A DNA stretch of 32,066 nt, taken from Candidatus Poribacteria bacterium. GTDB taxonomy: Bacteria; Poribacteria; WGA-4E; WGA-3G. The notes below the pieces were generated by a model. The model was not told where the DNA came from. It saw only the letters and a program-made list of their open reading frames with translations, and searched no databases. A program made the translations under genes and the position numbers. Location: NCBI GenBank assembly GCA_965214095.1, contig CBDCAZ010000001.1, positions 1 to 32,066 of the forward strand. The letters are read 5' to 3'. Positions 1 through 19,168 of this stretch are shown one piece after another (the first letter of the stretch is position 1; each line of letters starts with the position of its first letter).

Positions 1-120
1 ACCGAAAGCTGCATGTGAGAGATTTGCGATTGCCAAAAATGCGCAATTTTCGGTTGCCATTGACAGCGGGCTAGCGGCAACAATAAACGCCCCGAGGCCA
101 ACCCCGGGGCGTCGCTGAAC

Positions 121-159
121 AGAAATAGAAAAAGCCCCGGAACCCGAAGGCTCCGGGGC
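121..159 (-). terminator. Rho-independent terminator downstream of ssb
   Basis: Minus strand reads GCCCCGGAGCC-TTCG-GGTTCCGGGGC (11-bp stem with one G-U pair, cUUCGg loop) followed by TTTTTCTATTTCT, 14 nt after the ssb stop. Confidence 0.9.
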
Positions 160-173
160 GGGCGGACAATCGC

Positions 174-581
174 TCAGGCGGCGAGGTCCATGTCGTATGC
201 TTCCGCGGGCGGCGCCGGCGGCCGGTCCTGCTCCGGCCTGGGGTCGAGGAAGTTGATGGAACCGCGCGGGCCGACCACGATCTCGGTCGTGTAGCGGTCA
301 TTGCCGGCACGGTCCTGCCATTTGCGTGTGCGCAGCTTGCCGGTGATGTGGACCTGGCGGCCCTTCGCGGCGTGCTTGCGCAGCATGGCGACCAGGCCGT
401 CCTGGAAGACGACAATCCGGTGCCACTCCGTGGACTTCTTGTATTCGCCGCTCTGGCGGTCCTTGTAGACCTCGCTGGTGGCGATGGAGAAATTGGCGAC
501 GTCACCGCCGCTCTGCATGGTGCGGAACTCGGGGTCCCCGCCCAGATTGCCGATCAGGTCGACGCGATTGAGGCCGTTCAT
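174..581 (-). CDS. ssb: Single-stranded DNA-binding protein (mobile-element type)
   Basis: MNGLNRVDLIGNLGGDPE...FSIATSE...TEWHRIVVF...GKLRTRKWQD...RYTTEIVV is a canonical SSB OB-fold. Start moved to the ATG at 581, which has a GCAGGGAG RBS upstream. Short tail ends YDMDLAA rather than DDIPF. Confidence 0.96.
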   Translation of the reverse strand: MNGLNRVDLIGNLGGDPEFRTMQSGGDVANFSIATSEVYKDRQSGEYKKSTEWHRIVVFQDGLVAMLRKHAAKGRQVHITGKLRTRKWQDRAGNDRYTTEIVVGPRGSINFLDPRPEQDRPPAPPAEAYDMDLAA

Positions 582-625
582 GGTACTTGCTCCCTGCAAG
601 AGGTTGGTTGCGAGTTGCTCGAACT

Positions 626-669
626 CACCCCGAACAACCCCTTCCCAGCCTTCGCGGCGTGGATGCCGC
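626..669 (-). promoter_or_regulatory. Conserved upstream motif, copy A (before ssb)
   Basis: Plus strand CACCCCGAACAACCCCTTCCCAGCCTTC followed by a GCGGC-N6-GCCGC hairpin; matches the copies at 1076 and 2461. Confidence 0.7.
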
Positions 670-712
670 AAAGGCCGGAGAAGGGGAAGACAGACGGGGA
701 TGCAGGGAGGAC

Positions 713-1015
713 CTATCGCTGCCGCAACATATGACCCCAGACGGCATAGACGCCCCAGTACTGGACGCCGGAGTCCGGCTTCTTCTCGCAGCGGCAGATG
801 AGGATCTCGTTGCGCGCCGGGCGCAGGTCCCGCACCGTGGCCCGCGACAGGGTCAGCGGATGGCCCTTTCGGCCCGGCAGGCGGCGGATGTCGCCGTCGA
901 TGGTGGTGCGGTAGCGCTCGACCACATAGGTCTTGTCCTCGAGGCCGCGCCCGAAGAGGTGGGTGAGGAAGGTATTCGCATCGGGGCGAAGGAAGGAAGC
1001 CGTCATGCCGGTCAT
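713..1015 (-). CDS. Hypothetical protein (100 aa)
   Basis: Part of ORF 713..1198. The ATG at 1015 has a GGAGAT RBS and the same 5' leader as the gene starting at 2396. No family recognised. Confidence 0.7.
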   Translation of the reverse strand: MTGMTASFLRPDANTFLTHLFGRGLEDKTYVVERYRTTIDGDIRRLPGRKGHPLTLSRATVRDLRPARNEILICRCEKKPDSGVQYWGVYAVWGHMLRQR

Positions 1016-1120
1016 GGGGGATATCTCCGCTTGGGGAAGGACGCGGGCGCCGGTCGGACGGCAGACCCGTATCGATACCCCGACAAACCCCTTCCCGACC
1101 TTCAGCAGCGTTGCGGCTGC
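1013..1120 (-). repeat. Conserved upstream leader/motif, copy B
   Basis: CATGGGGGATATCTCC...GCGGG.GCCGGTCGGACGG...ACCCCGACAAACCCCTTCCCGACCTTC aligns with 2394..2487; GCAGC-N6-GCTGC hairpin at 1105-1120. Confidence 0.8.
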
Positions 1121-1151
1121 CGGGGACCGGGAAGGGGGGCGACGGGCCGCG

Positions 1152-2396
1152 CTACCGGCCTGCGGCCATGGGCGCGGCGTCGGTGATGATCTCGACATCG
1201 TCGATCGTGAGCTTGGCGTAGGCCAGCGCGCCCGCGACCTCCATGGGCGTCTCCCAGGTGCCGTGGTCGGTGCCGGTGGCGATCTCGATCACGGTGTAGC
1301 GGGTGGGCAGGTCCGGCATGCCGCGATACTCGTAGCCGCGCTGGCGGTCGAGGCAGGGGCGGCACTCCCGCATGAGGGGTTCCGGGGGCCGCTGGCCGCA
1401 GCGGGGACAGAGGCCGGCCGACTGGCGCTCGCATGTTACGCGGTGGTAACGGCGTCGGGCGCTTGCGAGGCGCGCCTCACGGCACGGGGCGCAGGATCCG
1501 GACTCACCGACCGGGGCGCGCTTTCCGCAATAGACACACATGCCCCGGGCGCGGGCGTCGGCGACCCTGCGGTGCCACCTCGCGCGCTCGCCGGCGCGGT
1601 GGCTGTCCCGGCAGGGCTCGCACGCGGTGAACCCGGCTTCCGGGGGCTCTTTTCCACACCGGATGCAAAGGTCTTGCGTGACGCGGGCGAGGACCCTGCG
1701 GTTGTACCGGTCCAGCCAGACGGCAAGGCAGGCCTCGCAGGCGGTTCGACCGCGAACGGCCGATGCCTGTCCGCAGACCAGGCACAAACCGACGGCGCGG
1801 CGGGCTTCCCGGCGGCGTCTGGCGGCCTCCCTGTCCCGTTTGGCGGTGAGCGGCTGGCAGTCGGCACAGCGGCGGCGTCCCGGGGCGGGGGGCGCCTTGC
1901 CGCATTCGATACAGAGCGACCGGTCGGCCTGCCGGCGCTGGCGCTCGGTGCGGTCGCGATGGGCCTGGCGCCGGGCCTCGAGGCAGTCCTCGCAACTGGT
2001 CTTGCCGTCTGCGGGCCTGTTCTCCCCGCAGCGCAGGCACAGGCCGGCCTTGTGCCGTTCATCACGCAGGCGCTGCTTGCGGGCACGGTTTGCCGCGCGT
2101 TCGTTCTCCCGGCAGGCGTCGCAGCGGCGGGGGCCGGGTTTCGGGATGGCGGTTTGGCAGTCGCGGCAAAGGCCGAGATTGTACAGAAGGAGGCGGCGCT
2201 TGCGTTCCGACTTGCGGGAACTGGCGCGGCGGCGCTCTATGCAGCCGGCGCAGTATTTCGCGCGCTCCGCGGGAACCTTGCCACAATGGCAAAGGCCCTG
2301 CGCGGGAGGCGCGGCGTCGGTGGAAGTGCCGGCGCGGCAGCAATGACAGCCCGCTTCGGCAGGCGGATGCGGATGACAGGGGGCGGAAGCCGGCAT
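1152..2396 (-). CDS. Tandem Cys4 zinc-finger repeat protein (8 repeats, Arg-rich linkers)
   Basis: Eight ~42-aa units of the form (G)LCxxC-x~11-CxxC plus an Arg-rich helix, then a ~55-aa non-repetitive C-terminal domain. GGAGAT RBS upstream. Confidence 0.85.
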   Translation of the reverse strand: MPASAPCHPHPPAEAGCHCCRAGTSTDAAPPAQGLCHCGKVPAERAKYCAGCIERRRASSRKSERKRRLLLYNLGLCRDCQTAIPKPGPRRCDACRENERAANRARKQRLRDERHKAGLCLRCGENRPADGKTSCEDCLEARRQAHRDRTERQRRQADRSLCIECGKAPPAPGRRRCADCQPLTAKRDREAARRRREARRAVGLCLVCGQASAVRGRTACEACLAVWLDRYNRRVLARVTQDLCIRCGKEPPEAGFTACEPCRDSHRAGERARWHRRVADARARGMCVYCGKRAPVGESGSCAPCREARLASARRRYHRVTCERQSAGLCPRCGQRPPEPLMRECRPCLDRQRGYEYRGMPDLPTRYTVIEIATGTDHGTWETPMEVAGALAYAKLTIDDVEIITDAAPMAAGR

Positions 2397-2507
2397 GGGG
2401 GATATCTCCTGCTGGACGAACGGGCGCGGGAGCCGGTCGGACGGGCGTCCCCGCGGAAATCACCCCGACAACCCCTTCCAAACCTTCGGACGGGCCGCGG
2501 CGGCGGC
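2394..2507 (-). repeat. Conserved upstream leader/motif, copy C
   Basis: Aligns with 1013..1103; core CACCCCGACAACCCCTTCCAAACCTTC at 2461-2487; GCCGC/GCGGC stem at 2494-2507. Confidence 0.8.
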
Positions 2508-2714
2508 ATCCGGCCAGTCGGGCGCGCAGGCGAGCGCCGCGACAACCCGGATCGGGGAAAATGGAGAGGCGGAAACCGGGCCGCCGGTTTTTCGGCTGTG
2601 CCCGGACGCCTTCCATGGTGTTACCGGGGTGGGACTTCAGCAGCCGGGCGCCGTTTTCGACCGCCGCCGGCAGGATGGCGGCCGGCGTCACGCCCTGGTG
2701 GTGGCGCCGGGCCA

Positions 2715-2846
2715 AGCCTGGCGATCACCGCGGCCGAGGCCGGGAGGCGCGTCTATTACGCCACGCTCGCGGGGCTGATCGACTCCCTCACCGAGGCGAA
2801 GACCGCCGGCAACCTGTCCCACCGCCTGCGCGTGCTCACCCACCCC
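2715..2846 (+). pseudogene. istB: IS21-family IstB ATPase internal fragment
   Basis: SLAITAAEAGRRVYYATLAGLIDSLTEAKTAGNLSHRLRVLTHP resembles the IstB segment between Walker A and Walker B; both Walker motifs are missing. Confidence 0.8.
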
Positions 2847-2880
2847 GGCATCGAGCCTGGGGGGACGACCCCACGCCCCA

Positions 2881-2932
2881 GGTGGGAACTTTTGGATCAC
2901 ATGAAATGAGAACTTTTCGGTCCCAATTGACA
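2881..2932. mobile_element. IS21-family terminal repeat (right end)
   Basis: Two copies of TG(G/A)GAACTTTT 24 bp apart (2883, 2907), ending in ...TTGACA. Multiple subterminal repeats and a terminal CA are typical of IS21 ends, and the istB fragment is adjacent. Confidence 0.7.
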
Positions 2933-2949
2933 CCGTCGCCGACAGGACG

Positions 2950-3040
2950 GCGGCCGGGGGTGCCGCGCCTTGTGTCACCGCTTAAATTGCAGGGGGTGCG
3001 CTTTGATTTCGCGGATTGGAGACCTTAACGGTGCTCCCGG
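2950..3040. repeat. ~90-bp direct repeat, copy 1 (oriT candidate)
   Basis: Aligns with 5648..5737; exact 33-bp shared core TTGCAGGGGGTGCGCTTTGATTTCGCGGATTGG (2987-3019). Confidence 0.9.
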
Positions 3041-3044
3041 ATAG

Positions 3045-3253
3045 GCGGACGCGGCGTTTCGCGCCTACTTCGGGCTGGAGCCACCGGCGCAGCAGCAGGA
3101 CCTTGCGGCGCTCACGCCCGGGGGTTTCGCCGTGGTGCGCCGCGAGGCCGAAATCCTGGACCTGCTCGACGAGCCGGAGGAGCTTGCCCGGATGCTCCAC
3201 GAGGAATGCGAGGCAAGCCGGGGCACCCGCAGGTCGTGGGCTTGCGGGCATGA
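3045..3253 (+). pseudogene. C-terminal fragment of an AAA+ ATPase
   Basis: AAFRAYFGLEPP...LTPGGFAVVRREAEIL...LHEECEA, then after a frameshift KPGHPQVVGLRA-stop; resembles the LTPGDFAVV...ECEAK...IGF tail of proteobacterial AAA ATPases. In-frame TAG at 3042 and no N-terminus. Confidence 0.55.
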
Positions 3254-3326
3254 GGTTTGCCGGGCCGGGCGCGCCGGCTATGGTGCTTCCGGCAAAGGCC
3301 GTCGGCAGAGAGGGGGAAGAGTCCGG

Positions 3327-3431
3327 ATGCGCTACGAACGCGCACAGCAGCTTGTCGCTCTGGCAATCCGTCTCCAGGGCTCGCCTTCCGGCCTTACGCC
3401 TGACGATATCCGGTCGGAGCTTTCCGTCTCC
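3327..3431 (+). pseudogene. N-terminal winged-HTH fragment of a WYL-domain (DriD/PafBC-like) regulator
   Basis: MRYERAQQLVALAIRLQGSPSGLTPDDIRSELSVS after a purine-rich RBS; similarity stops where the RTxxR recognition helix should follow. Confidence 0.65.
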
Positions 3432-3704
3432 CCGATCCTTCGGCGCCATTCAAGGTCGGGCGGCACGATGACGTTTCTCTCCTGTTTGCGGCGAGTCGAC
3501 GGCGCGGTGCCTAGCCGAACGGTTCGCGCGCCAGGCATCAGGCCTCTCATCCGAACGATATCAGATCAACAGTATTGTCATGGTCAGGGCGCCAAACGAG
3601 AATGTGGCCAGCCTATCTCGTAGTGTGAACTTGCCACCCACCGTCCCGACAGACCAACGCGGCTGTCGGAACACCGGACGACCGACCAAGGAGACGATGG
3701 CACG

Positions 3705-5402
3705 ATGGAATACATCCCGATACGGGTCAGCGACATTGTGAAACACGTGAACCATGACTGGTATCTTCCGGCAATTCAGCGTGAACTCGAATGGAATACG
3801 GTCAGAATAGAACGTCTCTTCGATTCCATCTTGTCCGATTTCCCCATAGGTTCATTCCTATTTTGGAACTTGGAGGAGAAGAACAAGAGCGAATGGCCTA
3901 TTTATGAATTCATTCGCGACTACGATGAAGACAAGCCTCACAACGTCTTGGCTAACATCCATGGGATTCGGAAGGATCTTACGCTGGTTCTCGATGGGCA
4001 ACAAAGAATTACATCTCTGTATATCGGCCTGATGGGATCTTATCGCTTTTTCTATTATCGTTGGCGTATGACGCGATTATACCTCAATTTGCTCAAGCCA
4101 CCAGTCCCGAATGAAGAAAATCCGGAGGAACTTGCCCACGAGTTCTCGTTTCGCGAGAATGGCCACGCGACCAACGACCTAGAAAAGTTGTGGTATCCAG
4201 TTGGTCGAATACTCGACTTTAACGACGCTGAAGATGCCAAGGCAGATATGAAGCAAACACTGTCCAGATTTCCTGAAGACGCACAGGAAAACGCCAATAA
4301 GCTTATCGGACGACTGCACAATCGTATCCACACCACGTTGATCGGAAACTATTATCTCGAAAAATCCCAAGACTATGACAAGGTTCTACAGATCTTCGTT
4401 CGCTCCAATTCTGCCGGGCAGCCATTGGCGTATTCCGACTTGCTGCTTGCAACGGCAACGGCGAAGTGGGACACCCTTGACGCTCGTAGCGAGATTCACA
4501 ATTTTACCGATTTGCTCAACGAAACCGGTACCGGCTACAAGTTCGGCAAAGATTTTGTGCTAAAGGCCTGCCTCTATCTCTGCGAATCTCTGCCAATACA
4601 GTACAAGGTCAAGAATTTTTCGAAGTCCAACCTCCTGACCATCGAATCCAACTGGGAGTCCATCAAGGATACGCTTGCTGTGACGGTGCGCTTGATTTCC
4701 CGTTTCGGCTTCCAAGCGAAAAACGTCGTGGCACCACTGGCCCTGCTCCCGATTGCCTTTTACCTGCAGAAGCGGGGCGATCCGAACTTCGACAAGTCAT
4801 CGAGCGTCGAAGACGCGGAAGCTCAGATCGCCATTCGAAAATGGTTTGTGTTTGCGACCCTCAAGAATGCATTTGGCGGCTCCTCAGATACGACGTTGAC
4901 ACGTCTTCGCCAGATACTGACGAAAGCTGGTTCGGCATTCCCTGCGGAAGAAATGTACAGATCTCTTCAGATCGAGCCGTCGTTGAGCGACGCGGAAGTG
5001 GATCGGATGTTGGAATATCAATACCAGGGCCGTTACACTAATTTGATTCTGTCGTTGTTGTATCCCGATAGAGACTGGAAAGATGCGGTGTTTCATGAGG
5101 ACCATATATTCCCGCAATCTGAATTCAAGGTAACGTTGTTGAGGGGACGATGTTATGATGATACCAAAATCCAGTCGTATATGTCGCGGTTCAACACGCT
5201 GCCGAACCTTCAGCTTCTGACCGATTCCGAGAATATGTCGAAGGGTGCTACACCTTTCGACAAATGGCTAAAGACCAGGGACGCGAAGTACCGATGTCGC
5301 CATCTAGTCCCGGGTTTGACAGATTATTCTTTCGACAACTTCGAAGAGTTTTTTAACGCCAGACGGCAATTGATAGTGGCGGCACTCAAGGCACTTTCCT
5401 GA
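3705..5402 (+). CDS. DUF262 + C-terminal HNH (DUF1524-like) protein, GmrSD-family putative modification-dependent restriction nuclease
   Basis: LPAIQRE, LFDS..PIGS..W, VLDGQQRITSL and IFVRSNSAG (DUF262/ParB-like NTPase); HEDHIFP...NTLPNLQLL...EN (HNH). Visibly lower GC than the flanks. Confidence 0.88.
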   Translation: MEYIPIRVSDIVKHVNHDWYLPAIQRELEWNTVRIERLFDSILSDFPIGSFLFWNLEEKNKSEWPIYEFIRDYDEDKPHNVLANIHGIRKDLTLVLDGQQRITSLYIGLMGSYRFFYYRWRMTRLYLNLLKPPVPNEENPEELAHEFSFRENGHATNDLEKLWYPVGRILDFNDAEDAKADMKQTLSRFPEDAQENANKLIGRLHNRIHTTLIGNYYLEKSQDYDKVLQIFVRSNSAGQPLAYSDLLLATATAKWDTLDARSEIHNFTDLLNETGTGYKFGKDFVLKACLYLCESLPIQYKVKNFSKSNLLTIESNWESIKDTLAVTVRLISRFGFQAKNVVAPLALLPIAFYLQKRGDPNFDKSSSVEDAEAQIAIRKWFVFATLKNAFGGSSDTTLTRLRQILTKAGSAFPAEEMYRSLQIEPSLSDAEVDRMLEYQYQGRYTNLILSLLYPDRDWKDAVFHEDHIFPQSEFKVTLLRGRCYDDTKIQSYMSRFNTLPNLQLLTDSENMSKGATPFDKWLKTRDAKYRCRHLVPGLTDYSFDNFEEFFNARRQLIVAALKALS

Positions 5403-5647
5403 CACCTCGGTGGCGGCGCGTTCGTCGAGCTAGGTGGATTCGTTAGGCCGCCGCCCCACTCTGGGCTAGCGGTCTTCTCTCGGCAGTGGGAAGCGGGCGG
5501 CAATCATCCGGAAGAAATAGCACGATGCGCGCCCGGTCGGCCCCCTGTAGTAGCCCAAGGTCAATGTGTTGCCGCGTCGATTAGCGCCGAGCCGCACGGG
5601 CAGGACTCGTTGCGGCCCACCTCGTGTCCAAAAGCCGGGAGACCTTC

Positions 5648-5737
5648 GCGGCCGTGGGTGCCGTGCCTCGTGTCGCCGCTTCGTTTGCAGGGGGTGCGCT
5701 TTGATTTCGCGGATTGGGGATCCTATGGTGCTCCCGG
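5648..5737. repeat. ~90-bp direct repeat, copy 2 (oriT candidate, upstream of MobC-like gene)
   Basis: Exact 33-bp core at 5685-5717; lies ~85 bp before the RHH relaxosome-type gene. Confidence 0.9.
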
Positions 5738-5822
5738 GGATTGGCCGGGGAGGCCGTGGCTGACAACGGGACTATCCCCGGGGGGCGCGACGTGACCATG
5801 GATACGCCATGGATGATGCCCC

Positions 5823-6197
5823 ATGGCGGCACCGGGAAACGCGCGTTCTGTCACCGTGTTCCCCGGGAGGAGGAACGGTTTGGCCGGGGATGATGGCAGG
5901 AAGAGGCCGCGCTCGGTGATGGCGACCGACAGCGAGTGGCGCCTCGTGCGCGACCGGGCGGCAAAGGCGGGGCTGTCGGCTTCGGAGTTCCTGCTGTCGC
6001 GCGGGCTTGCGCCTGCGGAGCCGGCGGTCGGGGGTGGCGGGCTGCCGCCCGCGGCGCAGCGGCGCCTTGCGGTCGATCTGCGCCTTCTGGCGCTGGCGGA
6101 GCGCCTGCGGCTGGCGCAGGAGGGCCGGGAGGGCGTCTGGCGCCGTCTGGTGGAGGAAGCGGAAGCCTCGGTGGCCGATGACGAGAGGGAGGGCTGA
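5823..6197 (+). CDS. Ribbon-helix-helix relaxosome accessory protein (MobC/NikA-like)
   Basis: RPRSVMATDSEWRLVRDRAAKAGLSASEFLLSRGL is an RHH mobilisation-protein pattern, and the gene lies near a relaxase. Start codon uncertain. Confidence 0.72.
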   Translation: MAAPGNARSVTVFPGRRNGLAGDDGRKRPRSVMATDSEWRLVRDRAAKAGLSASEFLLSRGLAPAEPAVGGGGLPPAAQRRLAVDLRLLALAERLRLAQEGREGVWRRLVEEAEASVADDEREG

Positions 6198-6203
6198 GCG
6201 GCC
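6124..6203. repeat. 80-bp direct repeat, copy 1 (3' end of MobC-like gene)
   Basis: 78 of 80 positions identical to 7919..7998; includes the TGA stop. Confidence 0.95.
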
Positions 6204-6207
6204 CGGC

Positions 6208-6372
6208 CACAAGGTCGTCCTGCACGAGATGATCGTGGCGGAGACGCAGTGCTGCGAGCAGGTGGCGCGACTGGATCAGGCAATCGAAGGCGCTCTCCTC
6301 GACTGGCCACTCGCGCCGGTGATGGAGCCCCTTCAAGCGCTGCGCGGAGTCAGACTCATCGCTGCGGTTACC
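6208..6372 (+). pseudogene. IS110-family transposase internal fragment
   Basis: HKVVLHEMIVAE...VARLDQAIEGALLDWPLAPVMEPLQALRGVRLIAAVT resembles the coiled-coil/HhH linker region of IS110 transposases. Confidence 0.7.
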
Positions 6373-6389
6373 GGTGACGCCGTGAGACC

Positions 6390-6587
6390 AGCATTGAGGA
6401 TGCGTTCGATCTCCGTCCGCCCTTCGCGTCCCATGCGCTGCCGCTCGGCGAGACCTTGCCGCTCGTCAGCAAAGTGCTCGGGCACGGCGATATCGAGACG
6501 ATGGCACGCTACGCCAATCTGGCGCTGGGCTCGATCCATGCAATGGTCGGGCGCGTTACCGAGGGCATTGCGGTAGATATACTGTAG
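6390..6587 (+). pseudogene. Tyrosine recombinase/integrase C-terminal fragment, degenerate
   Basis: Not in the ORF track. FDLRPPFASHAL..GETLPLVSKVLGHGDIETMARYANL...DIL-stop is a decayed HDLRH(S/T)FAS...LGH...T.RY box II. Confidence 0.85.
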
Positions 6588-6687
6588 GCGACACCACATC
6601 GCTCGGAGAGCCAAGTATTGCCAGGCTCCACAATCCCTCACAAACGGATAGTGCAGAAACAACCACTCACAACGACCGGAGACCTTA

Positions 6688-7914
6688 TTGCGCCTGAACC
6701 TTTCGTTTGAACCCGATCTCTTCGTGGCCCAACTGGGTCACGAAATAGCCGCAGGTGGCCTGACAGTCGTCGATGCAGTTGAGAGGTTTCTCTCAGATTG
6801 GCTGGAGAATGCCATCACCGGATGCCTCGGCGATAGAATCGTCAAGGCTCCCAACTCAATTGTGAATCCTACATACTACGTCAATCGATTCCAAAACCTT
6901 GCCGCACTCAGTCATGCCGGATATTCCACTTGGTATCCGGAAGTGCGTTTTTCCACGGGCAAGGGTGATGATGTAGACATTACTCAGTTGAGTGCGTCTG
7001 GCATTGAGCTCCGTAGCATTAGGTATGGCGGCGACGTTGAACGCCATTACGCCCACAAAATGAAGGAACTCAAGACGCAAGTAAACCATTCAATTCGTCT
7101 AAACGAAGTAAGAATATCTCCGGATCTCTTCATTCAAGTTATACAGGTATTGGCAAATCACCGTAAACTTTCGCAACCCCATATAGCCAACTTAACTGTG
7201 GGCATCGAACGATTTGTCGACGACAGAATTGAAGGATTCAGGACGGTCGCCTTTGACCATGTCGTTACCGGCGAGCGGCACTTCTGTTCATGCCACTCTG
7301 ACGCGCATGAGGCAATGCTCATGGATGCCAGAGAACGGCTTCCAAGTTTTGTCTCGGGTTCCTGGCCACATCGCGTCGTTTCTTTGCTTCAAGGCGCTCG
7401 ATATACGGACGACATTTGCCATTTCTGCGTTGCAGAACAGCACGGGAAGAACGCTCACGTAGAATGGTACGGCAGTCAGATTCGAAAGCATTATCAACCA
7501 TATGTTGATCTGCTTGTTCGCGGTAAGGTCATGGATCGCCGAACAGCGCGCGCAGAAACGATGCGTCGTCTTTCGATCAGCCGGTGGGTACGCGAGGACG
7601 AGCTATACGCAGTAATTCACAAGCTCTTTCCTGACCGTAAGATTCGCCGTGAGGCTTCCCCAACTTGGCTGGGTCAGCAGCGCCTGGACATCTATCTTCC
7701 CGAACTTGCCCTTGCGATCGAACACCAGGGAGAACAACACTTCTTTCCCATTGAAGCGTTTGGCGGACAAAGCGCATTGGAGAAGACGCGGGAGCGCGAC
7801 CGGCGCAAACGGGCACTGTGCAATGAGAACGGCGTTACGGTCATTGATGTGCGTTTCGATGACCCGATAACGACATCTAGTCTTAGAAGCCGCCTTAAGC
7901 GCTGGCTCTGCTGA
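6688..7914 (+). CDS. Unknown N-terminal region + Cys/His Zn-binding cluster + C-terminal Vsr/DUF559-like PD-(D/E)XK endonuclease
   Basis: TTG start with GGAG RBS; HFCSCH...CHFC; WLGQQRLDIYLPELALAIEHQGEQHF...RDRRKRALC. Lower GC than the flanks. Confidence 0.78.
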   Translation: MRLNLSFEPDLFVAQLGHEIAAGGLTVVDAVERFLSDWLENAITGCLGDRIVKAPNSIVNPTYYVNRFQNLAALSHAGYSTWYPEVRFSTGKGDDVDITQLSASGIELRSIRYGGDVERHYAHKMKELKTQVNHSIRLNEVRISPDLFIQVIQVLANHRKLSQPHIANLTVGIERFVDDRIEGFRTVAFDHVVTGERHFCSCHSDAHEAMLMDARERLPSFVSGSWPHRVVSLLQGARYTDDICHFCVAEQHGKNAHVEWYGSQIRKHYQPYVDLLVRGKVMDRRTARAETMRRLSISRWVREDELYAVIHKLFPDRKIRREASPTWLGQQRLDIYLPELALAIEHQGEQHFFPIEAFGGQSALEKTRERDRRKRALCNENGVTVIDVRFDDPITTSSLRSRLKRWLC

Positions 7915-7918
7915 AGTA

Positions 7919-7998
7919 GCCGTGAGGGCGTCTGGCGCCGTCTGGTGGAGGAAGCGGAAGCCTCGGTGGCCGATGACGAGAGGGAAGGCTGAGCGGCC
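7919..7998. repeat. 80-bp direct repeat, copy 2 (orphan copy of the MobC-like 3' end)
   Basis: 78 of 80 identical to 6124..6203; begins 4 bp after the stop of ORF 6688..7914. Confidence 0.95.
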
Positions 7999-8058
7999 GC
8001 GGATTCGGTATGGCGCCAGTGCTCCCGGATCGCCTGTGCGCGGCTGCTGCTTGCGCCG

Positions 8059-11000
8059 TCAGTATGAGAGGCCGTATCCCCTGGTGAGTTCCTGGCGCCG
8101 CGCGTAGACCTCGCCCATGTGCCGCCAGCATTCCCCGGAGAGGTTCTCGAAGCTCCGGGCGAGGTCGGCGGGCAGGGCCTGTGCCAGCCCGGACAGGGAG
8201 AGCCTGTCGTCGGGATCGATGGCCTCGCGGATATGGTGGCGGAAAGCGGCAAGGGTCTCTTCGGGCCAGGCGCGGTTCCTGCGGGCGAGTTCGACCAGCG
8301 CGTCACGGTCGCGGTCGTCTTCGGGCCTTGTGACGGCGCACATCAGCATGTCGAGGCGGCCGGGGTCGTGGCGCTGGTCGCCGGCGGCGAACGCGCCGGC
8401 GTCCGGCAGTTCGATCCGGCGGGGCCCCGCCTCGGGATCGCGCGCGGCGCGGCGGATCGCCTCGATCTCGGCAACGAGGTCGGCCATGTCGATCCAGCGG
8501 CGGTCGACATGGTCGCTCTGGGTGGGGTTGCCGGAGGCGCGCCAGTTCCGGAAGGTCTTGACGAACTGCTCGGCCCGGACGTCCCACCTGCGGTAATCCG
8601 GATCGACGTCGTTGAGGGCCCGGGGCGGGGGTTCGGGCGCCGGGGGGATGTCGTCTTCGGCCCGGAACAGCCCGAGGGCGCGGCCGATGAGCCCCGGACG
8701 GGCGGCCTCCTCCTCCGGGGCGGGCGGTTCCGGGGCAAGGGCGCGGTCGAGAATGGCGGGATATGTCTCCAGATGGGCCCGGGCCCGCCTGATTGCGTTC
8801 CGGATCGTGTCGCGGACACGGATTTCGCTGTCGATCACGGCCTGGAACTGCTCAAGGTAGCGGCGGTCCCTGTCGGAGAGCCCGGGGGTTGCGAGCAGCC
8901 GCGCGGCCTCGGCGCGCAGCGGCTCGATGCCGGGCTGGTAGATGATGGCGCTCTCGCCGGCGGCGGCGTCGGCCTCGTCAACGGCATCGCGGATGCGCCG
9001 GCAGCCGCGGGCAGCCTCCGCCTCCCGCTGCGCCCCGGCCCTGCCGGCGGCCGCCTTCGCCTCCTCCCGCAGCGTCTGGCCCGCGCCCTCCATGAGCGCC
9101 TCCGCCGCTTCCGCCGCCGCACGCCATGCCGCCGCATCCTGCGGGACGGCCATCCGGATCTGCGCTTCCAGATCGTCCAGCGCCCGCAGCGTGCCTCTTG
9201 TCGTCACCGCCCGTTCCCGGTGCCGCTCCGCCCGGTCGCGCCATTCGGCCGCCGCCCGGGGAGACCCGTCTTCCAGGGCATCCGCGACCGTCCCGGCGAT
9301 GGCGGACGCGCCGCCATGCGCCGACATCCGCTGCTGCCGCAGTTGCCGCCATGCCTGCACATCCGCCACAGTCAGTGGCGCCATCTCCCGCTCCGCTCGC
9401 GCCGCCTCGGAGATCCGGCGCCCGACCAGCCTGTAGATCCAGCGTTGCACCTCCACATCGAGCGCCCGTTGCCGCGCCCGGGCGTCGCGCGCCACCGCCG
9501 CCTCGCCCGCCACCAGCGCCCTGTCGGCCAGAACGCCGAAGGCCATCGCCGCCTCCCGGGCGGCCGCGCCATGGCGCTCTATAGAGGCCGTGTCGATATC
9601 CCTGTCGGAGAGGGCCCCGGCAGGCGCCAGACGCTCCGAGGCCGCGTCCGCCGCCGCCAGCGCCACGTTCAGAATACGGTAGGCCCGAAGCCGCGCCTGC
9701 ATCCCGGATCCGTTCGTCCTCGCCGCCCCGATACCGTCCCCGTCGGGCGCATGGCCGGCGGCAGCCGCCGCTTCCGTGAACGCCTCGGCGACGGCGGCCG
9801 CCGCGTCCCGCACCCGTTCGACCGCTGCCATCCGCGCCCGCAGCGCCTGCCTGTCCTCCAGCCCGCCCGCCGGCAGGGCGGCGAAGGCGCGTTCGGCCTC
9901 CTCCGCACGGGCCCGCGCCGACGAAAGCGCCGCCTCCGCCTCCACCAGCCGGTGCCGGGCCTCCCCCTGGTACCGCCGATCCGCCCGCAGGCCGTCCAGG
10001 AACTGAGCCGCTATCTCCGCGCGGATGGTGGATTTCGCCGGGACCGCCGTGTCCACCTCGCCGATCGCCTCCAGCGCCGTCAGCCGCGCGCCCGTGTTCG
10101 CCTCCAGCGTCTCCACAAGCTGCTCGCGATTGTCGGTCAGCACCACAGCCTGCTCGCGCGCCCGGCCCAGCTGCACATAGAGCGTCTGCTGGTTCACCAG
10201 CGGCCCGGCGCCCGTGTCCAGCACCGCGATCACCCGGTCATGCGTCTGCCCCTGCGCCGCATGCACCGTGGAGGCATAGGCGTAGGCCAGGTGGCGCAGC
10301 TGCGGGTCGTTCCGCGCGAAGCTCAACTCCCGCCCGTCGGGGAGCCCCATCCACAGCACCCCCTTGCCGATCTCCAGCACGTCGGCCCGGTCGCCATTGG
10401 CAAGGCCGCGCTCCCGGTCGTTGCGGGTCCAGCGCAGCCGCTCGCCTTCCCTGATCCGCAGCGTCTTCGCCTCGAACAGGTCGAGCCGGTAGCGCAGCTC
10501 GCTGCCCGGCTTCAGGTGGCGCGGCCGGCCGTCATCATGGGCAAGCCTGACACGGTCCTCCTCCACCGCCATCACCGTGCAGGCATCGTCCCTGGCGATG
10601 CGGTAATGCTTCATGTCGCGGTTGAAGAGCGCGATATCGCCCTCGCGCCAGTTGCGGGGATCGCCGGTCTCGGCGCGTGTGAGGTTGAGCGGCACCAGGG
10701 TCTCGATCTCCATGGCGCGCCCGCGCAAGGCTCCCTCGGCCTCAAGACCCTCGCGCACCGCCTCCTCGACCCCGGCCCTGAGCGCGCGCGTCGGCACCAG
10801 CAGCGCCGTTGCCGCCCGCGCCTCCGCCGAGAGCCTGAGCCAGAGACCGGCCGCCACACCCGCGATCTCCTCGGCCGGGACTTCCTGCAGATTGCCCCCC
10901 AGATGCGCGAGCGCCGCGCCCGGCTCGCCCTCGATCATCTCCGCGACCGCCGCCCTCAGGTCCGGATCGCGCTGCCGGCGCAACTCGTCCATCTCCACAA

Positions 11001-12783
11001 CGCCCATGCCCGCCTGCTGCATCTGCCGGAAGGGCTGGCCCGCCTCCACGCCCCGCAACTGCCGCTTGTCGCCCACAAGCACGAGGCGCGCCACCTCCAG
11101 ACGCTCCGCAATCCTGAGCAGCGACCGCGCCTGCGCCGTGCCCGCCAGCGACATCTCGTCGACTACCACCACCGCGCCGCCATAGCGTTCTTTCAGGCGA
11201 GCGAGCGTCTCGGCATCCGCGACCCCGTCCGCCACCTCCCGGCAGCGTGTGAGGAACCATTGCAGCGTCCGGCAGGCGAGGCCCGTCTCGCGCGAGAGCG
11301 TCCGCGCCGCAGACGCCGACGGCGCCAGGCCCAGCACAGGCCGCCCGCCCAGGCACGACACGGCCCGGCGCAGCATGACCGTCTTGCCGCTGCCCGCATG
11401 GCCCTGTACGCCCAGCACCCGGTCGCGGCTCTCCAGGATCGAGCGCACCGCCTCGCGCTGGCCTTCGCTCAACCCCGCCAGCGCCTCTTCCGGAACGGCA
11501 TGCGCCGCGAGTGGGCGCACCGCGCCGATGCCGGCCTTCATGCGGGCCAGAACCTCGCGCTCGGCCTTCACCGCCCGCGCCGTCGTCCACGCCGCGCCCA
11601 CCCCGCGCCGGATCGCCGGCAGCAGATGCCTGTCACGCTGCAGTTCGGCAAAGGCGCCCTCGATCTCCTCCAGACGGTAAAGCCCCGGCCTGTGCGCCAG
11701 AGCCAGCGCCAGCGCCTCCCTCTCCGGGAACACGCTCGCCCGCTCCTCCAGCTGCTCCAGAACCCGCCAGGCGATCTCCAGCGCCGTCGGCGGCTCCGGG
11801 TGGCGCGCGCCGATCTTCCTGAGCGTCCGCTTGGCGAGACCGCGCTCCTCCGCGAAATCCCGCCACAGCGCCTCCAGCTCCGCACGCCGCGGCTCGTTCT
11901 TGCGCGCCCTTGTGGCCAGCGTCGCCATCTGCGCCGTGCGCGCATCGTAGCGCCAGCCCTTCTCCCGGATGAAGTCGAGGATCTGCCGCCGCCGGCTCGA
12001 GAACGCCTCCAGAGCCGCCCGCGGCCAGCCCGATATCTCGAACCCCGGCACACGCCCGATCATCGACGGCCTGAGCGCGAACCCCGCCTTCCTCAGCCCG
12101 TGCGCCAGTTCGTTGCGGTAGAAGGCCCCGACCAGCTTCTCCGACCGGCGCAGCAGGCCGATCTCGGCACTCCGCCACTGTCCGCCATCGCGGGTCATGT
12201 TGGCGATCACGCAATGGGTGTGAAGCTGCGGGTCGTTGTTGCGGCTGGTGATGTGCCGGAAGGTTGCCGCCACCAGCATGGGTGCGTTCACCTGCACCGA
12301 GCGCCGCTCCTCCGGGCTCCAGCGCCGCGTCCGCAAGAGCCGCGTCTCGATGAACGCCAGCGTCGCGCGCACCGCCGCGTCATGCGCGCGCATCGCCCGC
12401 GCGGAGCCCGGACCGCCGAGCAGCGCCTCCAGCGATACCGACTTCGGCGCCGACAGCGTGATGTCCACACCCGGGCGGTGCTCGTGTTCACCGTCGCGCA
12501 GCCGCCCCAGGCGAATGTCCGTGCCCGGCACATGGCCCTGAAGCACGCGGCGGAACTCTCCCGGCTCCACATGGCCGCTCAGCCCCAGCGCCGCCGCCCC
12601 GCTGCCCCGCCACCGGCTCGCCTTGCGGTGCTCGTCATCGCGGCGGGCGTAATAGTCCTCGCGCTCATTAGCCTGCCCCGGGCTCGATCCGGGGGTCGCC
12701 GGCGCGCCCAGCCCGTGGCCCTCGCGGCGGAAATAATGCACCGTCGAGGAGGCCGAGGTGAGGCTGACCACCGTCGCTACCAT
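8059..12783 (-). CDS. trwC: MOBF conjugative relaxase-helicase (TrwC/TraI family) with long C-terminal extension
   Basis: N-terminal YF...DYY, DITLSAPKSVS, HITSRNNDPQLHTH (HUH), FSSRR; RecD-like helicase motifs GHAGSGKT, VVVDEMS, LVGDKRQL, YASTVHAAQGQT, LYVQLGRAR. Confidence 0.95.
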   Translation of the reverse strand: MVATVVSLTSASSTVHYFRREGHGLGAPATPGSSPGQANEREDYYARRDDEHRKASRWRGSGAAALGLSGHVEPGEFRRVLQGHVPGTDIRLGRLRDGEHEHRPGVDITLSAPKSVSLEALLGGPGSARAMRAHDAAVRATLAFIETRLLRTRRWSPEERRSVQVNAPMLVAATFRHITSRNNDPQLHTHCVIANMTRDGGQWRSAEIGLLRRSEKLVGAFYRNELAHGLRKAGFALRPSMIGRVPGFEISGWPRAALEAFSSRRRQILDFIREKGWRYDARTAQMATLATRARKNEPRRAELEALWRDFAEERGLAKRTLRKIGARHPEPPTALEIAWRVLEQLEERASVFPEREALALALAHRPGLYRLEEIEGAFAELQRDRHLLPAIRRGVGAAWTTARAVKAEREVLARMKAGIGAVRPLAAHAVPEEALAGLSEGQREAVRSILESRDRVLGVQGHAGSGKTVMLRRAVSCLGGRPVLGLAPSASAARTLSRETGLACRTLQWFLTRCREVADGVADAETLARLKERYGGAVVVVDEMSLAGTAQARSLLRIAERLEVARLVLVGDKRQLRGVEAGQPFRQMQQAGMGVVEMDELRRQRDPDLRAAVAEMIEGEPGAALAHLGGNLQEVPAEEIAGVAAGLWLRLSAEARAATALLVPTRALRAGVEEAVREGLEAEGALRGRAMEIETLVPLNLTRAETGDPRNWREGDIALFNRDMKHYRIARDDACTVMAVEEDRVRLAHDDGRPRHLKPGSELRYRLDLFEAKTLRIREGERLRWTRNDRERGLANGDRADVLEIGKGVLWMGLPDGRELSFARNDPQLRHLAYAYASTVHAAQGQTHDRVIAVLDTGAGPLVNQQTLYVQLGRAREQAVVLTDNREQLVETLEANTGARLTALEAIGEVDTAVPAKSTIRAEIAAQFLDGLRADRRYQGEARHRLVEAEAALSSARARAEEAERAFAALPAGGLEDRQALRARMAAVERVRDAAAAVAEAFTEAAAAAGHAPDGDGIGAARTNGSGMQARLRAYRILNVALAAADAASERLAPAGALSDRDIDTASIERHGAAAREAAMAFGVLADRALVAGEAAVARDARARQRALDVEVQRWIYRLVGRRISEAARAEREMAPLTVADVQAWRQLRQQRMSAHGGASAIAGTVADALEDGSPRAAAEWRDRAERHRERAVTTRGTLRALDDLEAQIRMAVPQDAAAWRAAAEAAEALMEGAGQTLREEAKAAAGRAGAQREAEAARGCRRIRDAVDEADAAAGESAIIYQPGIEPLRAEAARLLATPGLSDRDRRYLEQFQAVIDSEIRVRDTIRNAIRRARAHLETYPAILDRALAPEPPAPEEEAARPGLIGRALGLFRAEDDIPPAPEPPPRALNDVDPDYRRWDVRAEQFVKTFRNWRASGNPTQSDHVDRRWIDMADLVAEIEAIRRAARDPEAGPRRIELPDAGAFAAGDQRHDPGRLDMLMCAVTRPEDDRDRDALVELARRNRAWPEETLAAFRHHIREAIDPDDRLSLSGLAQALPADLARSFENLSGECWRHMGEVYARRQELTRGYGLSY

Positions 12784-13076
12784 GAGCAGAGCCTAGCCCA
12801 TTGCGCAGGGCGGCGCATGCACGGACCTGCTCCCGATACCGGTCGGTATTGTCGGGACTTCGCGTTCGGGGGCCACACGAACGTCAGGGCATCGGGAGGA
12901 TTCCGTTGGCGGCGGAATCATGGCAGGATGGCGCACATTCACGGATCGCGTTCCGGGCCAGACCGGTATCGGAGGGACAGGCCATGACACCAATGCTTGC
13001 GAAGGTCGGGACGGCAGCATCGGCCCTGTTCATGGGCCGGCTGGCGGTTTCGGGGTTGACAGGCGGAGACACCGAC

Positions 13077-16000
13077 ATGGCTACAATTAAGCCGAGCCGA
13101 GCCGAGCCGAGCCGAGCCGAGCCGCTCTTCCTGCGTCTTCATGGTGGCGCCGCCTAGGGCGCTCCGCCTCCCGGCCTGAGCTTTCTTCCGCTAGCGGGCG
13201 TTCCGACAGCCGCCGGCCCGCTTCCTCCTCCGACAGCTTCGCTCCCTCTCCCACCCGCGCCGCCGCGGGCGTTGGTCCTACCGTTCGCCGTCCCCGGCGC
13301 GGCCTGCTGCCCGCCCTGTTTGTCCTGCCGCTGCTCCTCGGGCTGGCAACCGAAGCCGCAGCGCAGAGCCAGAGCGTGCCGACGCTCAAGGTCGAGATAC
13401 CGACCGTCACCGAAGGCGAGACCGGCACCATCAAGCTCACCCTGAGCCAGGAGTCGAGCCAGTCGATAGATACTCAGGTTAGCGCCTTCTCTATAGTTTG
13501 CGGCAGTGGCGTTACCTGCCCGCAAGGCACGACCGCAGCGGGCGCCAGCGACTATTCCTTAACCAGCGTGACGATAACCTTCGCTCCTAGCGAGACGACC
13601 AAGACCGTCTCCTTCACCACGACCGACGACAGCACGTCCGAGTCGACCGAGGTGTTCCAGCTTGCGGTTACCGGTCTCGCTGCCTCCGAAGCCACCATCG
13701 ACCCCAGCACGCCGGCAGACGGCCAAGGTTTTGGACAACCATACTGGTTAGTCCGCATCCAGGACAACGACAATCCGGGGAACCCGAACGTCACGATTAC
13801 CCCCGGCACGTCGCCGGTGACGGAGGGGACGGCTGCGACCTTCACGGTGACGGCGACGCCGGCGCCCACTGCGGCGACGACGGTCTCGGTGGCGGTGACG
13901 GAGGAGACGAGCGGCAGCCAGGATTTCGTGGCTTCGAGCAACGAGACCACGCACACGGTGACCATTCCGGCGTCGGGAAGCCCGAACGCGGGCACGGCCA
14001 CGCTCACCATCCCGACGGTGGGCGACACCAACCAGGAGCCGCATGGCGCGGTGACGGCGGCGGTGAACACCGGCACCGGCTATACGGTGGGCAATCCGTC
14101 ATCGGCGACCGTGACGGTGCTGGACGACGACGGCACGTCGGCGCCTCCGGAGGTGTCAGTGCGGTTGATGACCGGCGAGGGCGAGAACCGCAACTCCGAC
14201 GGCGAGGTGGAGAAGCCCGAGTCCGACGGCACGGTGTCGTTCCCTCTATCGCTGGACGCGCAACCGTCGGCGGCGCTGACAGTGTGCGTCCGAGTGACCG
14301 AGTCGGGCGATGTCGACCGGGTCGCATTGGCCGATGAAGGTATCAAGACGGTGAGTTTCAACTCCGGCGTGCAGACGGGGTCAATCGACGTGGCGTGGAC
14401 CGACACAGATGCGGACGACCTGGACAGCGTCATCACCGTTACGGCAGTCCCGTCCAACACCGTGGGCTGCAGCAGCACGGACGTGTACACGGTGTCGAGC
14501 ACCACCGGCTCAGACAAGGTGAAGGTCTCGGATGACGAAGTGACCGCATTGTCGTTGGCTTCTTCGGACACGGAGATGGGTGAAGGCGACGCTTCGAACA
14601 CGGCGGTGATAACGGTGTCTCTGGGTCGTGCGCTGATCAGCGGTGAGTCGGTGGTGGCGCCGATCACGCTCGCTACCGACAACGGCGCACGACTGCCCGG
14701 CCACGCGACACCGGACTTTGCGGTGGCCGCAATGGGCACCGGCGTGGCGCTGAGCAACGCGACGTCCGCGACGCCCCGACTGACGTTCACCGGCTCCGAC
14801 TCAAGCACCGTGCAGGAAGCGACGGTGACGCTGACTCCAGTGGCGAACCGGGACGACGGTGACACGGACAATGAGACGATCACCGCAACGCTTTCCCTGC
14901 TGACCGGCACGGGTTCGGGCACTGTGGTGACCGGCGGCGGCGTGGCAGTCGTACAGGCATCTTCGGTGGCGACCCTGACGCTGGAGGACGACGAGGCCGC
15001 GCCGCCGGCGTGCCCTGCCCAGAACAACAGCCTCAGCGTTGGCAGCATTCGCATTCTCGAAAACGGCGAAACGACCTATTGCGTGCGGCTTCCCACCGCG
15101 CCTTCCGGTGGCAACACCACCGTCACCATCGGCAAGGCGGGCAGATATCAGGGGGCCGCGAACGCAAGCACAACAACACTCACCTTCACGGCATCGAACT
15201 ACATGAACCCGCAGCCGGTAACGGTGACCGGCGTGGACCAGCCGAACCTCCATCTCAACCGCACACTGTCATTGACCCACGCGGCCAACGGCGGCGGCTA
15301 CTCGAACCAGGGACTGGGCTGGGTTTCGGTGACGGTGGACGACGCGCCCGAGCTTGAGGTGTTTGATCTGGCGGTAATGAACGCCAATGACTACGCTGCC
15401 AAACAGCGCCCGAACACCGTCAAGGCGACGCGGGGGTTCAGGTATTTCCAGAATGACATGGTGCCAATTCTGCCGCTGCGTTACCTGCTGCGCCTGTCGA
15501 ACCGCCCGGCGACCGGCGAAACGGTGACGGTGACGGCAACATCGAGCGACTTCGCCAAGTTCGGCCTGTCTCGGACCCCGGGCGGCACGCCGCAGCCGTC
15601 GCTGACGGTGACCTTCGAGGACCGCGATGCCGACCGGGTCTGTTTCAATGGGGGTCACGGCTCTCCTGATGGAGCTAACACGCCGAACCCGGACATGTCC
15701 TGGGCGTGCAATCGCCGGATCTGGGTCATCAGCACGCAGAATGACAAAGCGACCTACCGGAAGGGCTGTGCCGACATCACCCACACGGCCTCGGGCGGCG
15801 GCCTGCGCGGCACGGCTATCGGGACGATCCGCGCCCACGCCGTTGCTGCCGGCAACCACCGTGCCCCCTCCAACGCCCCGGGCCGCGGATGCGCCCTCAT
15901 CACCAGCGAACTGCGCGGCCGCTCCGCACCCGCCCTTGCCGCCCCGGCGCCCACCGAGGCAGTCTCCAACCTGCAGGTGACGGCGGTGGACGACACCAGC

Positions 16001-19000: not shown

Positions 19001-19168
19001 ATGGGGCTGGGGCTCGCCACCGGCGCACGCGACTACAGCATCGGCTGGAGACTGACGCCCTCGAAGAATGCGCCTGATGTCTCTTTCGGCATCCGGGCAA
19101 CCCGCAGGGAAAGCGACGCGGCCGCACCGGAGCATACCCTCGGGCTCGAAATCAACACGCGGTGGTGA
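13077..19168 (+). CDS. Large secreted/outer-membrane adhesin-like protein (Calx-beta/Ig-like repeats, FN3-like domain, C-terminal autotransporter-like beta-barrel); frameshifted at the (AGCCG)7 tract
   Basis: ORF 13376..19168 has VTEG...TVTVLDDD Calx-beta-type repeats, an FN3-like NLQVTAV..SVTWDAVEHATSYDVSW segment, and an amphipathic beta C-terminus ending in Trp. The frame stays open back to 13091 and encodes a signal peptide (RRPRRGLLPALFVLPLLLGLATEAAA/QS), but the ATGs with an RBS (13077, 12984) are in another frame. Confidence 0.85.
13090..13124 (+). repeat. Pentanucleotide microsatellite (AGCCG)7, putative phase-variation tract
   Basis: Seven perfect AGCCG units starting 13 nt after the first base of ATG 13077. 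Confidence 0.97.

Follow-up and report, generated by a model that had tools for sequence, protein, structure and literature searches.

A duplicated 3' end of a mobilization gene bounds a nuclease-bearing insert that is probably the remnant of a small integrative island

We analyzed a DNA stretch of 32,066 bp (the window), which is the whole of contig C2 (CBDCAZ010000001.1) of an assembly deposited under Candidatus Poribacteria (GCA_965214095.1) and has a G+C content of 64%. It carries an insert of 1,715 bp (positions 6204-7918), located between two 80-bp copies of the 3' end of a mobilization accessory gene, here called mob. We propose that this insert is what erosion has left of a small integrative island, which probably entered at the 3' end of mob by the action of a P4-type integrase and lost the integrase later to the insertion of an insertion sequence (IS) and to deletions. 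The target gene (5823-6197, plus strand) encodes a 124-aa protein, putatively of the NikA-like, ribbon-helix-helix type. The original prediction, made from the sequence alone, had labeled it MobC-like, and this label was not retained: the Pfam match was to the NikA-like family (E 2.9e-5, 24.6 bits, below the 27-bit cut-off), accompanied by a match to the NCBIfam MobA model (E 0.024, 15.1 bits, where the cut-off is 80). The closest relative of the window, locus L003 from a metagenome-assembled genome (MAG) of an alphaproteobacterium, possesses a homolog with 97% identity at the protein level, and DNA matches to mob were found in 17 of 37 genomes of the order of L003. As judged from these profile matches, the NikA/MobA-type assignment agrees with this conservation and with the position of the gene beside a TrwC-family relaxase.

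The two 80-bp direct repeats (6124-6203 and 7919-7998, both in plus orientation) are identical at 78 of 80 positions, have an identical inner block of 59 nt, and lie 1795 bp apart from start to start; when the window was shuffled 100 times with its dinucleotides preserved, not a single match was obtained. The duplication was thus present where it had been predicted. The long direct-repeat pairs of the window are this one and a second one at 2950-3027/5648-5725, which is described below; two other repeat families listed for the window were short (40-45 nt) and 63-71% alike. The left, attL-like copy comprises the final 74 nt of mob, including its stop codon, and 6 nt downstream. The right, attR-like copy is a displaced pseudo-3' end of mob and is followed by the native downstream flank. 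The copies differ at 6128/7923 (G/T) and 6191/7986 (G/A), which changes CGG to CGT and GAG to GAA in the mob frame; both are silent third-position changes, as would be expected if an incoming copy must encode the same C-terminus. Homology between the copies stops 6 nt past the mob stop, and this end point, together with the silent differences, fits an island that brings a replacement 3' end for its target gene. A 38-nt piece of the repeat (6137-6174/7932-7969) also occurs alone, at 95% identity, elsewhere in the L003 genome, where its chromosomal context is unrelated (locus L134, 6019-6056; G001:C1:447718-447755), and this context is likewise present as contigs in two of the metagenome runs described below, X5 and X7.

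To the right of the insert lies the gene for a 1574-aa TrwC-family relaxase-helicase (8059-12783, minus strand; Pfam TrwC E 2.3e-73, AAA_30 E 2.9e-46), which is convergent with mob and 94% identical in L003. A scan for this relaxase with one genome per species returned eight loci, among them L003. Three segments of the window matched L003: 85-3040 at 90.5%, 5648-6206 at 96.1% and 7919-12894 at 95.7% identity. The latter two, which in the window stand on either side of the insert, both map onto a single interval of L003, 14765-14847. L003 contains one copy of the 80-mer and no insert, and its mob runs directly into the native downstream flank and the end of the relaxase gene. Therefore, the 1.7-kb insert is a real insertion polymorphism, and the predicted insertion bounded by the duplicated 3' end of its target gene was confirmed. 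The distance of about 60 bp that had been foreseen between the mob and relaxase stops after removal of the insert was measured as 66, both in L003 and in the window, where it was counted from the pseudo-stop of mob (7990-7992) to the relaxase stop (8059-8061).

The three predicted components of the insert, an IS110 scrap, a decayed C-terminus of a tyrosine recombinase and an intact nuclease gene of lower G+C content, were all recovered. The leftmost (6204-6377, plus strand) is an internal, non-functional fragment of an IS110-family transposase gene. In blastn, window positions 6217-6372 were 71-77% identical to IS110 transposase genes on plasmids of rhizobia, the lowest E-value being 4e-18; IS110 genes were the sole matches, four of the six matching plasmid records being annotated as IS110 transposase. 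The NCBIfam model transpos_IS110 aligned to the fragment over profile positions 167-234 of 343 (E 6.4e-4). A complete IS110 element, with DEDD transposase and element ends, was not found in the insert, the match covering about 156-174 nt.

The second component (6378-6587, plus strand) corresponds to the last 58-70 or so codons of a tyrosine integrase, including the LGH...Y segment, and is preceded by an in-frame stop at 6375-6377. In tblastn, window positions 6408-6581 matched residues 334-391 of the 392-aa integrase of locus L016 (65.5% identity, E 4e-15). The L016 integrase has the Pfam domains Arm-DNA-bind_3, SAM_3, Phage_int_M and Phage_integrase, which is the P4-type set; Phage_integrase itself matched the stub weakly (E 0.16). 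The stub therefore appears to derive from the class of integrase that builds such islands, in support of the entry proposed here. Four recombinase-type queries against the 32-kb contig found this stub as their sole match and no other tyrosine recombinase, and within the insert no functional site-specific recombinase was found, residues 334-391 of 392 standing behind an in-frame stop. The idea that the unit is a satellite active today thus gained no support. Pfam detected no relaxase or mob domain in those open reading frames (ORFs) of the insert that were scanned, and the nuclease gene is the only intact ORF. For the tandem integrase-like matches in L016, L019 and L020 we had considered elements of the recombinase-in-trio family; this assignment was dropped, Pfam identifying those of L016 as P4-type integrases.

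The intact cargo gene (6688-7914, plus strand) encodes a 408-aa protein, ORF408, with an N-terminal region, a Cys/His cluster and a C-terminal domain (residues 293-408, approximately) that resembles the Vsr/DUF559 type of PD-(D/E)xK nucleases. Its G+C content is 0.517, as against 0.73-0.74 in mob and the relaxase gene. Homologs align over the full length from the same N-terminus; 262 proteins were accepted at E≤1e-3 among 8000 candidates examined. The 120 homologs listed are 48-90% identical and mostly about 408 aa long, none of them has a precomputed Pfam domain, and the few that are named are called hypothetical. In an alignment of 25 sequences, the residues C200, C202, H207, C244, H245 and C247 are invariant, as are D334, E345, Q347 and H351 in the C-terminal domain.

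In the AlphaFold model of ORF408 (mean predicted local distance difference test score, pLDDT, 84.7), residues 293-408 superposed on the Vsr endonuclease (1cw0_A) with Z 10.5 and a root-mean-square deviation of 2.5 over 107 residues, on the DUF559-type protein NGO0050 (3hrl_A) with Z 10.0, and on the homing endonuclease domain of I-Bth0305I (3r3p_B) with Z 9.6. Foldseek also ranked Vsr first, with probability 1.00 but an E-value of 4.4e-3. PHROG families matched at E from 1.5e-26 to 1e-4, mostly over residues 295-405 or so and in one case back to residue 187, and some of them are annotated as homing, HNH or intron-encoded nucleases (E 2.7e-16 to 1e-4). For ORF408, the protein atlas yielded unnamed clusters, the nearest named one being a DUF559 lead (score 0.86). 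A Vsr-like fold is accordingly predicted by the model, and the label of nuclease is supported for the C-terminal domain. ORF408 differs from the Vsr/DUF559/EDxHD (I-Bth0305I) branch in that a glutamine, the invariant Q347, replaces the acidic residue in the E-x-D/Q position and in that the domain is fused to an N-terminal region of 290 residues. Searches with the whole protein gave no Pfam family at threshold and nothing convincing in Pfam, NCBIfam or PADLOC (no defense family at E≤0.1), and a sequence-profile search of the PDB gave no match at E≤1. The N-terminal 292 residues folded alone had a pLDDT of 76 and a best Z of 5.4, below noise level, and no fold was assigned to them. ORF408 was absent at E≤1e-20 from 401 sampled genomes of the class of L003. 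In viral contigs, 311 of 454 candidate stretches were confirmed, and 79 of the 80 loci kept contain the C-terminal domain only. The one full-length relative there (L054, 5926-7185; 39% identical) adjoins a gene for an MvaT-like silencer and lies 2.3 kb from a relaxase of the MobA/VirD2 type; this is a single anecdote, again beside a mobilization module.

Four metagenome runs (X1, X2, X5 and X7), all in the form of contigs, were compared with the window. Runs X5 and X7, from the same study, each contain a contig of 1775 nt that equals window positions 6174-7948 with 0 differences, at depths of 4.6 and 8.5, respectively. The flanks reach depths of 160-1400 when summed over many variant contigs, so that related backbones greatly outnumber the insert-bearing one in these runs. 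Run X2, from another study, contains a 388-nt contig that covers 5885-6272 with 6 mismatches and crosses the left junction. The insert is thus not an artifact of one assembly. In run X1, from a third study, a 3527-nt contig matches 6365-7922 at about 92.6% identity (115 differences in 1558 positions). This match starts within about 10 nt of the boundary between the IS110 and integrase fragments and extends over the first 4 nt of the right repeat, beyond which the X1 contig continues with unrelated sequence. These end points suggest that the 3' end of the integrase gene and ORF408 form an older linked unit, the right end of which coincides with the right end of the insert, and that the IS110 piece was probably added later on the left.

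Based on these observations, we suggest the following course of events. A circular island carrying a P4-type integrase gene and ORF408 would have recombined, in Campbell fashion, at the 3' end of mob on a conjugative or mobilizable element of a high-GC alphaproteobacterium. Since the island would have brought its own copy of the last 75 or so nucleotides of mob, the gene would have stayed whole and the two copies would have come to flank the insert in the manner of attL and attR. The integrase gene would then have been hit by an IS110 element, and most of both genes would have been lost through at least two deletions, one reaching from the left attachment (att) arm to within the IS and another from the IS to about codon 330 of the integrase. 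What is left today would be a unit devoid of a recombinase, with ORF408 as its sole intact gene, which could move only by homologous recombination between the 80-bp repeats, by a related integrase acting in trans, or passively with its host element. The repeats, the empty site of L003, the foreign base composition, the origin of the two scraps and the intact, nuclease-folded cargo are observations; integrase-driven entry and the order of decay are inferred, and we hold the account with moderate confidence.

Islands and prophages that restore a target protein gene by bringing a replacement 3' end are well known, for example e14 and phage 21 in icd of Escherichia coli and islands with P4-type integrases. 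The present unit resembles them in several respects: the repeats are the last tens of nucleotides of the target gene, the gene is kept whole, homology ends just past the stop, the differences between the copies are silent, a trace of a P4-type integrase lies inside, and the cargo has a foreign G+C content. It differs from them in being non-autonomous, with 58 codons of integrase left, and very small (1.7 kb), and it has entered an accessory gene of the relaxosome, on a mobile element, instead of a tRNA or housekeeping gene. What is unusual is the target; the mechanism is an ordinary one.

Several points weigh against this account. Because there is no functional integrase on the 32-kb contig, the enzyme is inferred from a stub of 58 codons. 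The left repeat abuts the IS110 fragment with no recognizable att arm in between, so that the island has lost its original left end. The empty site of L003 could be a precise deletion between the repeats instead of the ancestral state, and the comparison comprises one empty-site relative and one occupied locus. The argument from silent changes is weak: 73 of 240 possible substitutions are silent, which gives a chance of 0.09 that both would be. The left copy agrees with L003 at both differing positions (G at 6128 and at 6191), while the A of the right copy is the native allele in another relative, L051, and either copy may be the native one. In X1, the sequence past the right end is not mob-like, so that no mob-like att is present on that side. 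Finally, neither a joint that skips the insert nor a circle junction was seen among the contigs of X1, X2, X5 and X7, a result that is uninformative, as contigs drop rare forms.

Of the two things looked for in homologous loci, an empty site or different cargo at the junction, the first was found in L003, and the second was not demonstrated. A metagenome scan with the mob protein produced 599 pattern-matching stretches, of which tblastn confirmed three, one of them close (L051, with a mob gene 94% identical). In L051, divergence sets in about 5 bp past the right-hand end of the repeat; the contig stops 530 bp later and is too short to show a second repeat copy. The window, L003 and L051 share TGAGCGGCC at the mob stop, and L051 leaves L003 after five more bases. 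The end of the L051 contig (6061-6181) consists of about 15 tandem copies of the 8-nt unit CGCCGGAT, preceded by a low-GC non-coding stretch. A 12-nt inverted match between the downstream flanks of L051 and L003 was noticed by eye and is possibly due to chance. No second cargo bounded by the same 80-bp repeat was found in the relatives obtained with relaxase or mob.

In more distant mob loci (L012, L013, L017, L022, L026-L029, L136 and others), mob and the gene downstream of it overlap, the stop of the one with the start of the other (TGAGATG...). In most relatives this is a small gene, the product of which begins with M-x-R-Q-Y-C-I-T-C-P; in the window, L003 and L051, mob is not followed by it. 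This distribution suggests that the convergent mob-relaxase layout is a derived rearrangement with a breakpoint just past the mob stop. The relaxase stop is directly followed by genes for an SPFH protein and a XerC-like integrase in L004, L007 and L009 and by one for an Arm-DNA-binding protein in L010; in L008, what follows is a different GmrSD gene (23% identical to the one described below) beside a copy of the 91-bp sequence that is also described below. By gene content, the zone past the relaxase stop is clearly variable in the relatives. In L136 (G006:C1:1789000-1800500), two mob genes (2618-3038 and 8313-8624) lie inverted and 5.3 kb apart and enclose two small ORFs, a gene for a protein with an Arm DNA-binding domain and one for a XerC-like integrase. 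An integrase-type Arm DNA-binding domain devoid of a catalytic integrase domain was observed both at L010 202-1035 and at L136 4204-5232, adjoining relaxase or mob genes.

The second long repeat pair of the window bounds a neighboring insert of 2.6 kb. Its copies of about 91 bp are located at 2950-3041 (left) and 5648-5738 (right), both on the plus strand, and between them lies a gene for a GmrSD-type (HEC-05) defense nuclease (3705-5402, plus strand; Pfam GmrSD_N E 2.8e-29, PADLOC HEC-05 E 1.3e-182; G+C content 0.485). This insert is absent from L003, where window segments 85-3040 and 5648-6206 overlap on 15235-15324 and one 91-bp copy is present at the corresponding site. The same repeat-bounded architecture beside mob appears to support the island origin of the 1.7-kb insert. 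The original prediction of two adjacent, repeat-bounded defense slots held for the existence of both inserts and for the defense gene of this one; the defense nature of the other was not corroborated by any PADLOC model. The left part of the GmrSD island (3042-3704) has a high G+C content (66%) and holds a 163-codon ORF (3132-3623) with no Pfam, PHROG or NCBIfam match; by eye, its middle seems to resemble the N-terminus of helix-turn-helix/WYL-type regulators, a type often encoded just ahead of defense genes.

The left 91-bp copy is L003-like at diagnostic positions 8 and 17 (and over positions 1-17) and foreign at 22, 28, 35-37, 71, 74, a 1-nt insertion and 79; the pattern of the right copy is the reverse, with one misfit at position 76. 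The two versions are 87% identical. The pair thus bears the signature of a reciprocal crossover, within repeat positions 17-22, between two diverged versions of one site, and this reciprocal chimerism implies that the incoming DNA carried its own copy of the backbone sequence. The 91-bp sequence has a 32-nt core invariant in the three closest copies and recurs upstream of mob genes (window 5685-5738; L022, L013 and L049; compare the copy in L008 mentioned above). L003 contains it twice (15217-15324 and 19106-19162), 3.9 kb apart, around genes for a single-stranded DNA-binding protein (SSB) and two unknown proteins. It may be an origin of transfer (oriT) or an operator.

The main contig of the same assembly, C1, is 5.2 Mb long with a G+C content of 41%. 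Since C2 has 64% and its close relatives are all high-GC alphaproteobacterial MAGs, C2 appears to stem from a second organism of the sample and not from the chromosome of the main organism. The termini of C2 do not overlap, as found in a check for circularity, and neither the insert nor the 80-bp repeat has any further occurrence in the four contigs of the assembly. The genes of C2 encode SSB, the TrwC-family relaxase-helicase, the NikA-like accessory protein, the GmrSD/HEC-05 nuclease, a NucS-like protein, an SF1 helicase, a 1930-aa Calx-beta protein and a DUF2357 protein. L003 lies within a 3.9-Mb chromosome, and therefore the backbone behaves there as an integrated conjugative or mobilizable element. 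Megablast of window positions 5400-9500 against the plasmid database gave no match, and no tRNA genes were found in the window or near the integrases of L016, L019 and L020. In the right half of the contig, the regions 13376-19168, 20928-21923, 22685-25708 and 28320-29939 correspond to the Calx-beta protein (1930 aa), a NucS-C-like nuclease, the SF1 helicase (AAA_11/AAA_12) and DUF2357, a set that is reminiscent of defense islands.

An unlikely alternative is that the insert and one repeat copy circulate between related conjugative elements as a circle of 1,795 bp, which leaves and re-enters by host homologous recombination, or by an enzyme acting in trans, at the backbone-derived homology blocks of 80-91 bp. 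The two units around mob would then be exchangeable cargo slots rather than fossils of autonomous islands. Neither island has a working recombinase, and the stretches of backbone sequence that bound the two are similarly long (80 and about 91 bp). The 91-bp chimera, with its diverged incoming backbone site, would be expected from such an exchange, as would the different GmrSD gene beside the 91-bp sequence in L008, and the excess of insert-free backbones in X5 and X7 points the same way. On the other hand, exchange leaves the origin of the first duplication unexplained, and 80 bp with mismatches is a poor substrate for RecA. The contigs contain no circle junction, empty-site joint or second cargo at the 80-bp junction, and the integrase stub is more simply read as the trace of the original agent. 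A more general version seems doubtful to us: within this family of conjugative elements from Alphaproteobacteria, mob would be bracketed by two docking sequences, one of about 91 bp upstream and one of 80 bp at its 3' end, for small nuclease or defense cassettes that lack a recombinase and travel as circles from one related element to another by Campbell-type recombination, in an integron-like exchange of cargo that relies on backbone homology around the relaxosome genes.

We consider it improbable that the insertion was mediated by the relaxase or was illegitimate, that is, that strand transfer of the TrwC type, template switching or an unknown mechanism duplicated about 80 bp. A TrwC-family relaxase is adjacent, the duplications in the two neighboring inserts are of similar length, and the integration of DNA at oriT copies by TrwC is documented in the part of the source available (PMC3264647). 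However, the 80-bp repeat falls within coding sequence, at the distal end of mob and outside the conserved upstream block, the crossover in the 91-bp pair (positions 17-22) falls outside the invariant 32-nt core, and the tools used identified no nic site.

Homing driven by the nuclease is very improbable. ORF408 would be a free-standing endonuclease of the homing type: it would cleave mob-relaxase junctions that lack the insert, repair of the cut would copy it in, and the scraps would be hitch-hiking debris. The likeness of its C-terminal domain to the catalytic domain of I-Bth0305I, the PHROG families with homing-type annotations, the high conservation of the listed homologs over distant hosts and the abundance of the domain alone in phage contigs would agree with this. 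Homing, however, produces no 80-bp target duplication, the unit holds 480 bp of unrelated scraps, there is no target-site evidence, the family was not found among the sampled genomes of the class of L003, and the conserved N-terminal region with its Cys/His cluster fits a regulated or defense nuclease at least as well. An assembly artifact, in which a unitig of low depth, with a collapsed repeat at its ends, was placed within a backbone of high depth, the true molecule being a free circle or located elsewhere, is hardly credible: the low depth of the insert relative to its flanks, the ends of the insert contig exactly 30 nt into each repeat, as for a graph node, the G that all run contigs over position 8000 carry where the window has C, and the foreign G+C content of C2 within its assembly could suggest it, but the X2 contig of an independent study spans mob into the insert, the two differing positions show that the copies were not collapsed in assembly, the precise empty site of the sister element shows that the flanks belong together, and the G at 8000 is explained by contigs dropping rare variants.

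Among described systems, the integrative mobilizable elements (IMEs) of the IME_oriT group in Firmicutes come close in location: according to the part of the source available, 53 of 64 lie in the oriT of integrative conjugative elements (ICEs), and the elements excise and are transferred by means of a relaxase of their own (PMC7563843). As far as that description goes, the present case shares with them a small integrated element inside the transfer-initiation locus of a conjugative element, which it uses as host. They have a working integrase and their own Rep-Trans relaxase, and their excision and transfer were shown, whereas the present unit has neither enzyme and is known from its sequence alone; moreover, it resides in an alphaproteobacterial host the relaxase of which is of the TrwC (MOBF) type, and it occupies the 3' end of mob, not oriT. 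With no working recombinase and no relaxase, it does not qualify as an autonomous island or IME and is like the fossil of one. Hotspots of defense genes in conjugative elements, such as hotspot 5 of SXT ICEs (bioRxiv 10.1101/2020.12.16.423150) and Pseudomonas islands (PMC12629846), as portrayed in the available parts of these sources, likewise combine a conserved backbone with swappable low-GC nuclease or defense cargo at fixed junctions, comparable to the SPFH and integrase genes of L004, L007 and L009 and the other GmrSD gene of L008. Bounding by duplications of 80-90 bp of backbone seems not to be described for them in those parts.

If the insert is the remnant of an island, as we favor, it shows that, in Alphaproteobacteria too, smaller islands can settle in the locus from which a conjugative element starts its transfer, which had been described for ICEs of Firmicutes, and the window and L003 form a clean before-and-after pair for two adjacent insertions. 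If cassettes are exchanged instead, defense genes could move between elements without carrying any recombinase, and if mob is bracketed by docking sequences, an exchange with a diverged sister element would have left its trace in the reciprocally chimeric 91-bp pair. The ORF408 family is large, well conserved and uncharacterized; its 408-aa members combine a Cys/His cluster with a Vsr-like nuclease domain and ride on mobile DNA, which makes the family a reasonable candidate for a new defense or selfish nuclease.

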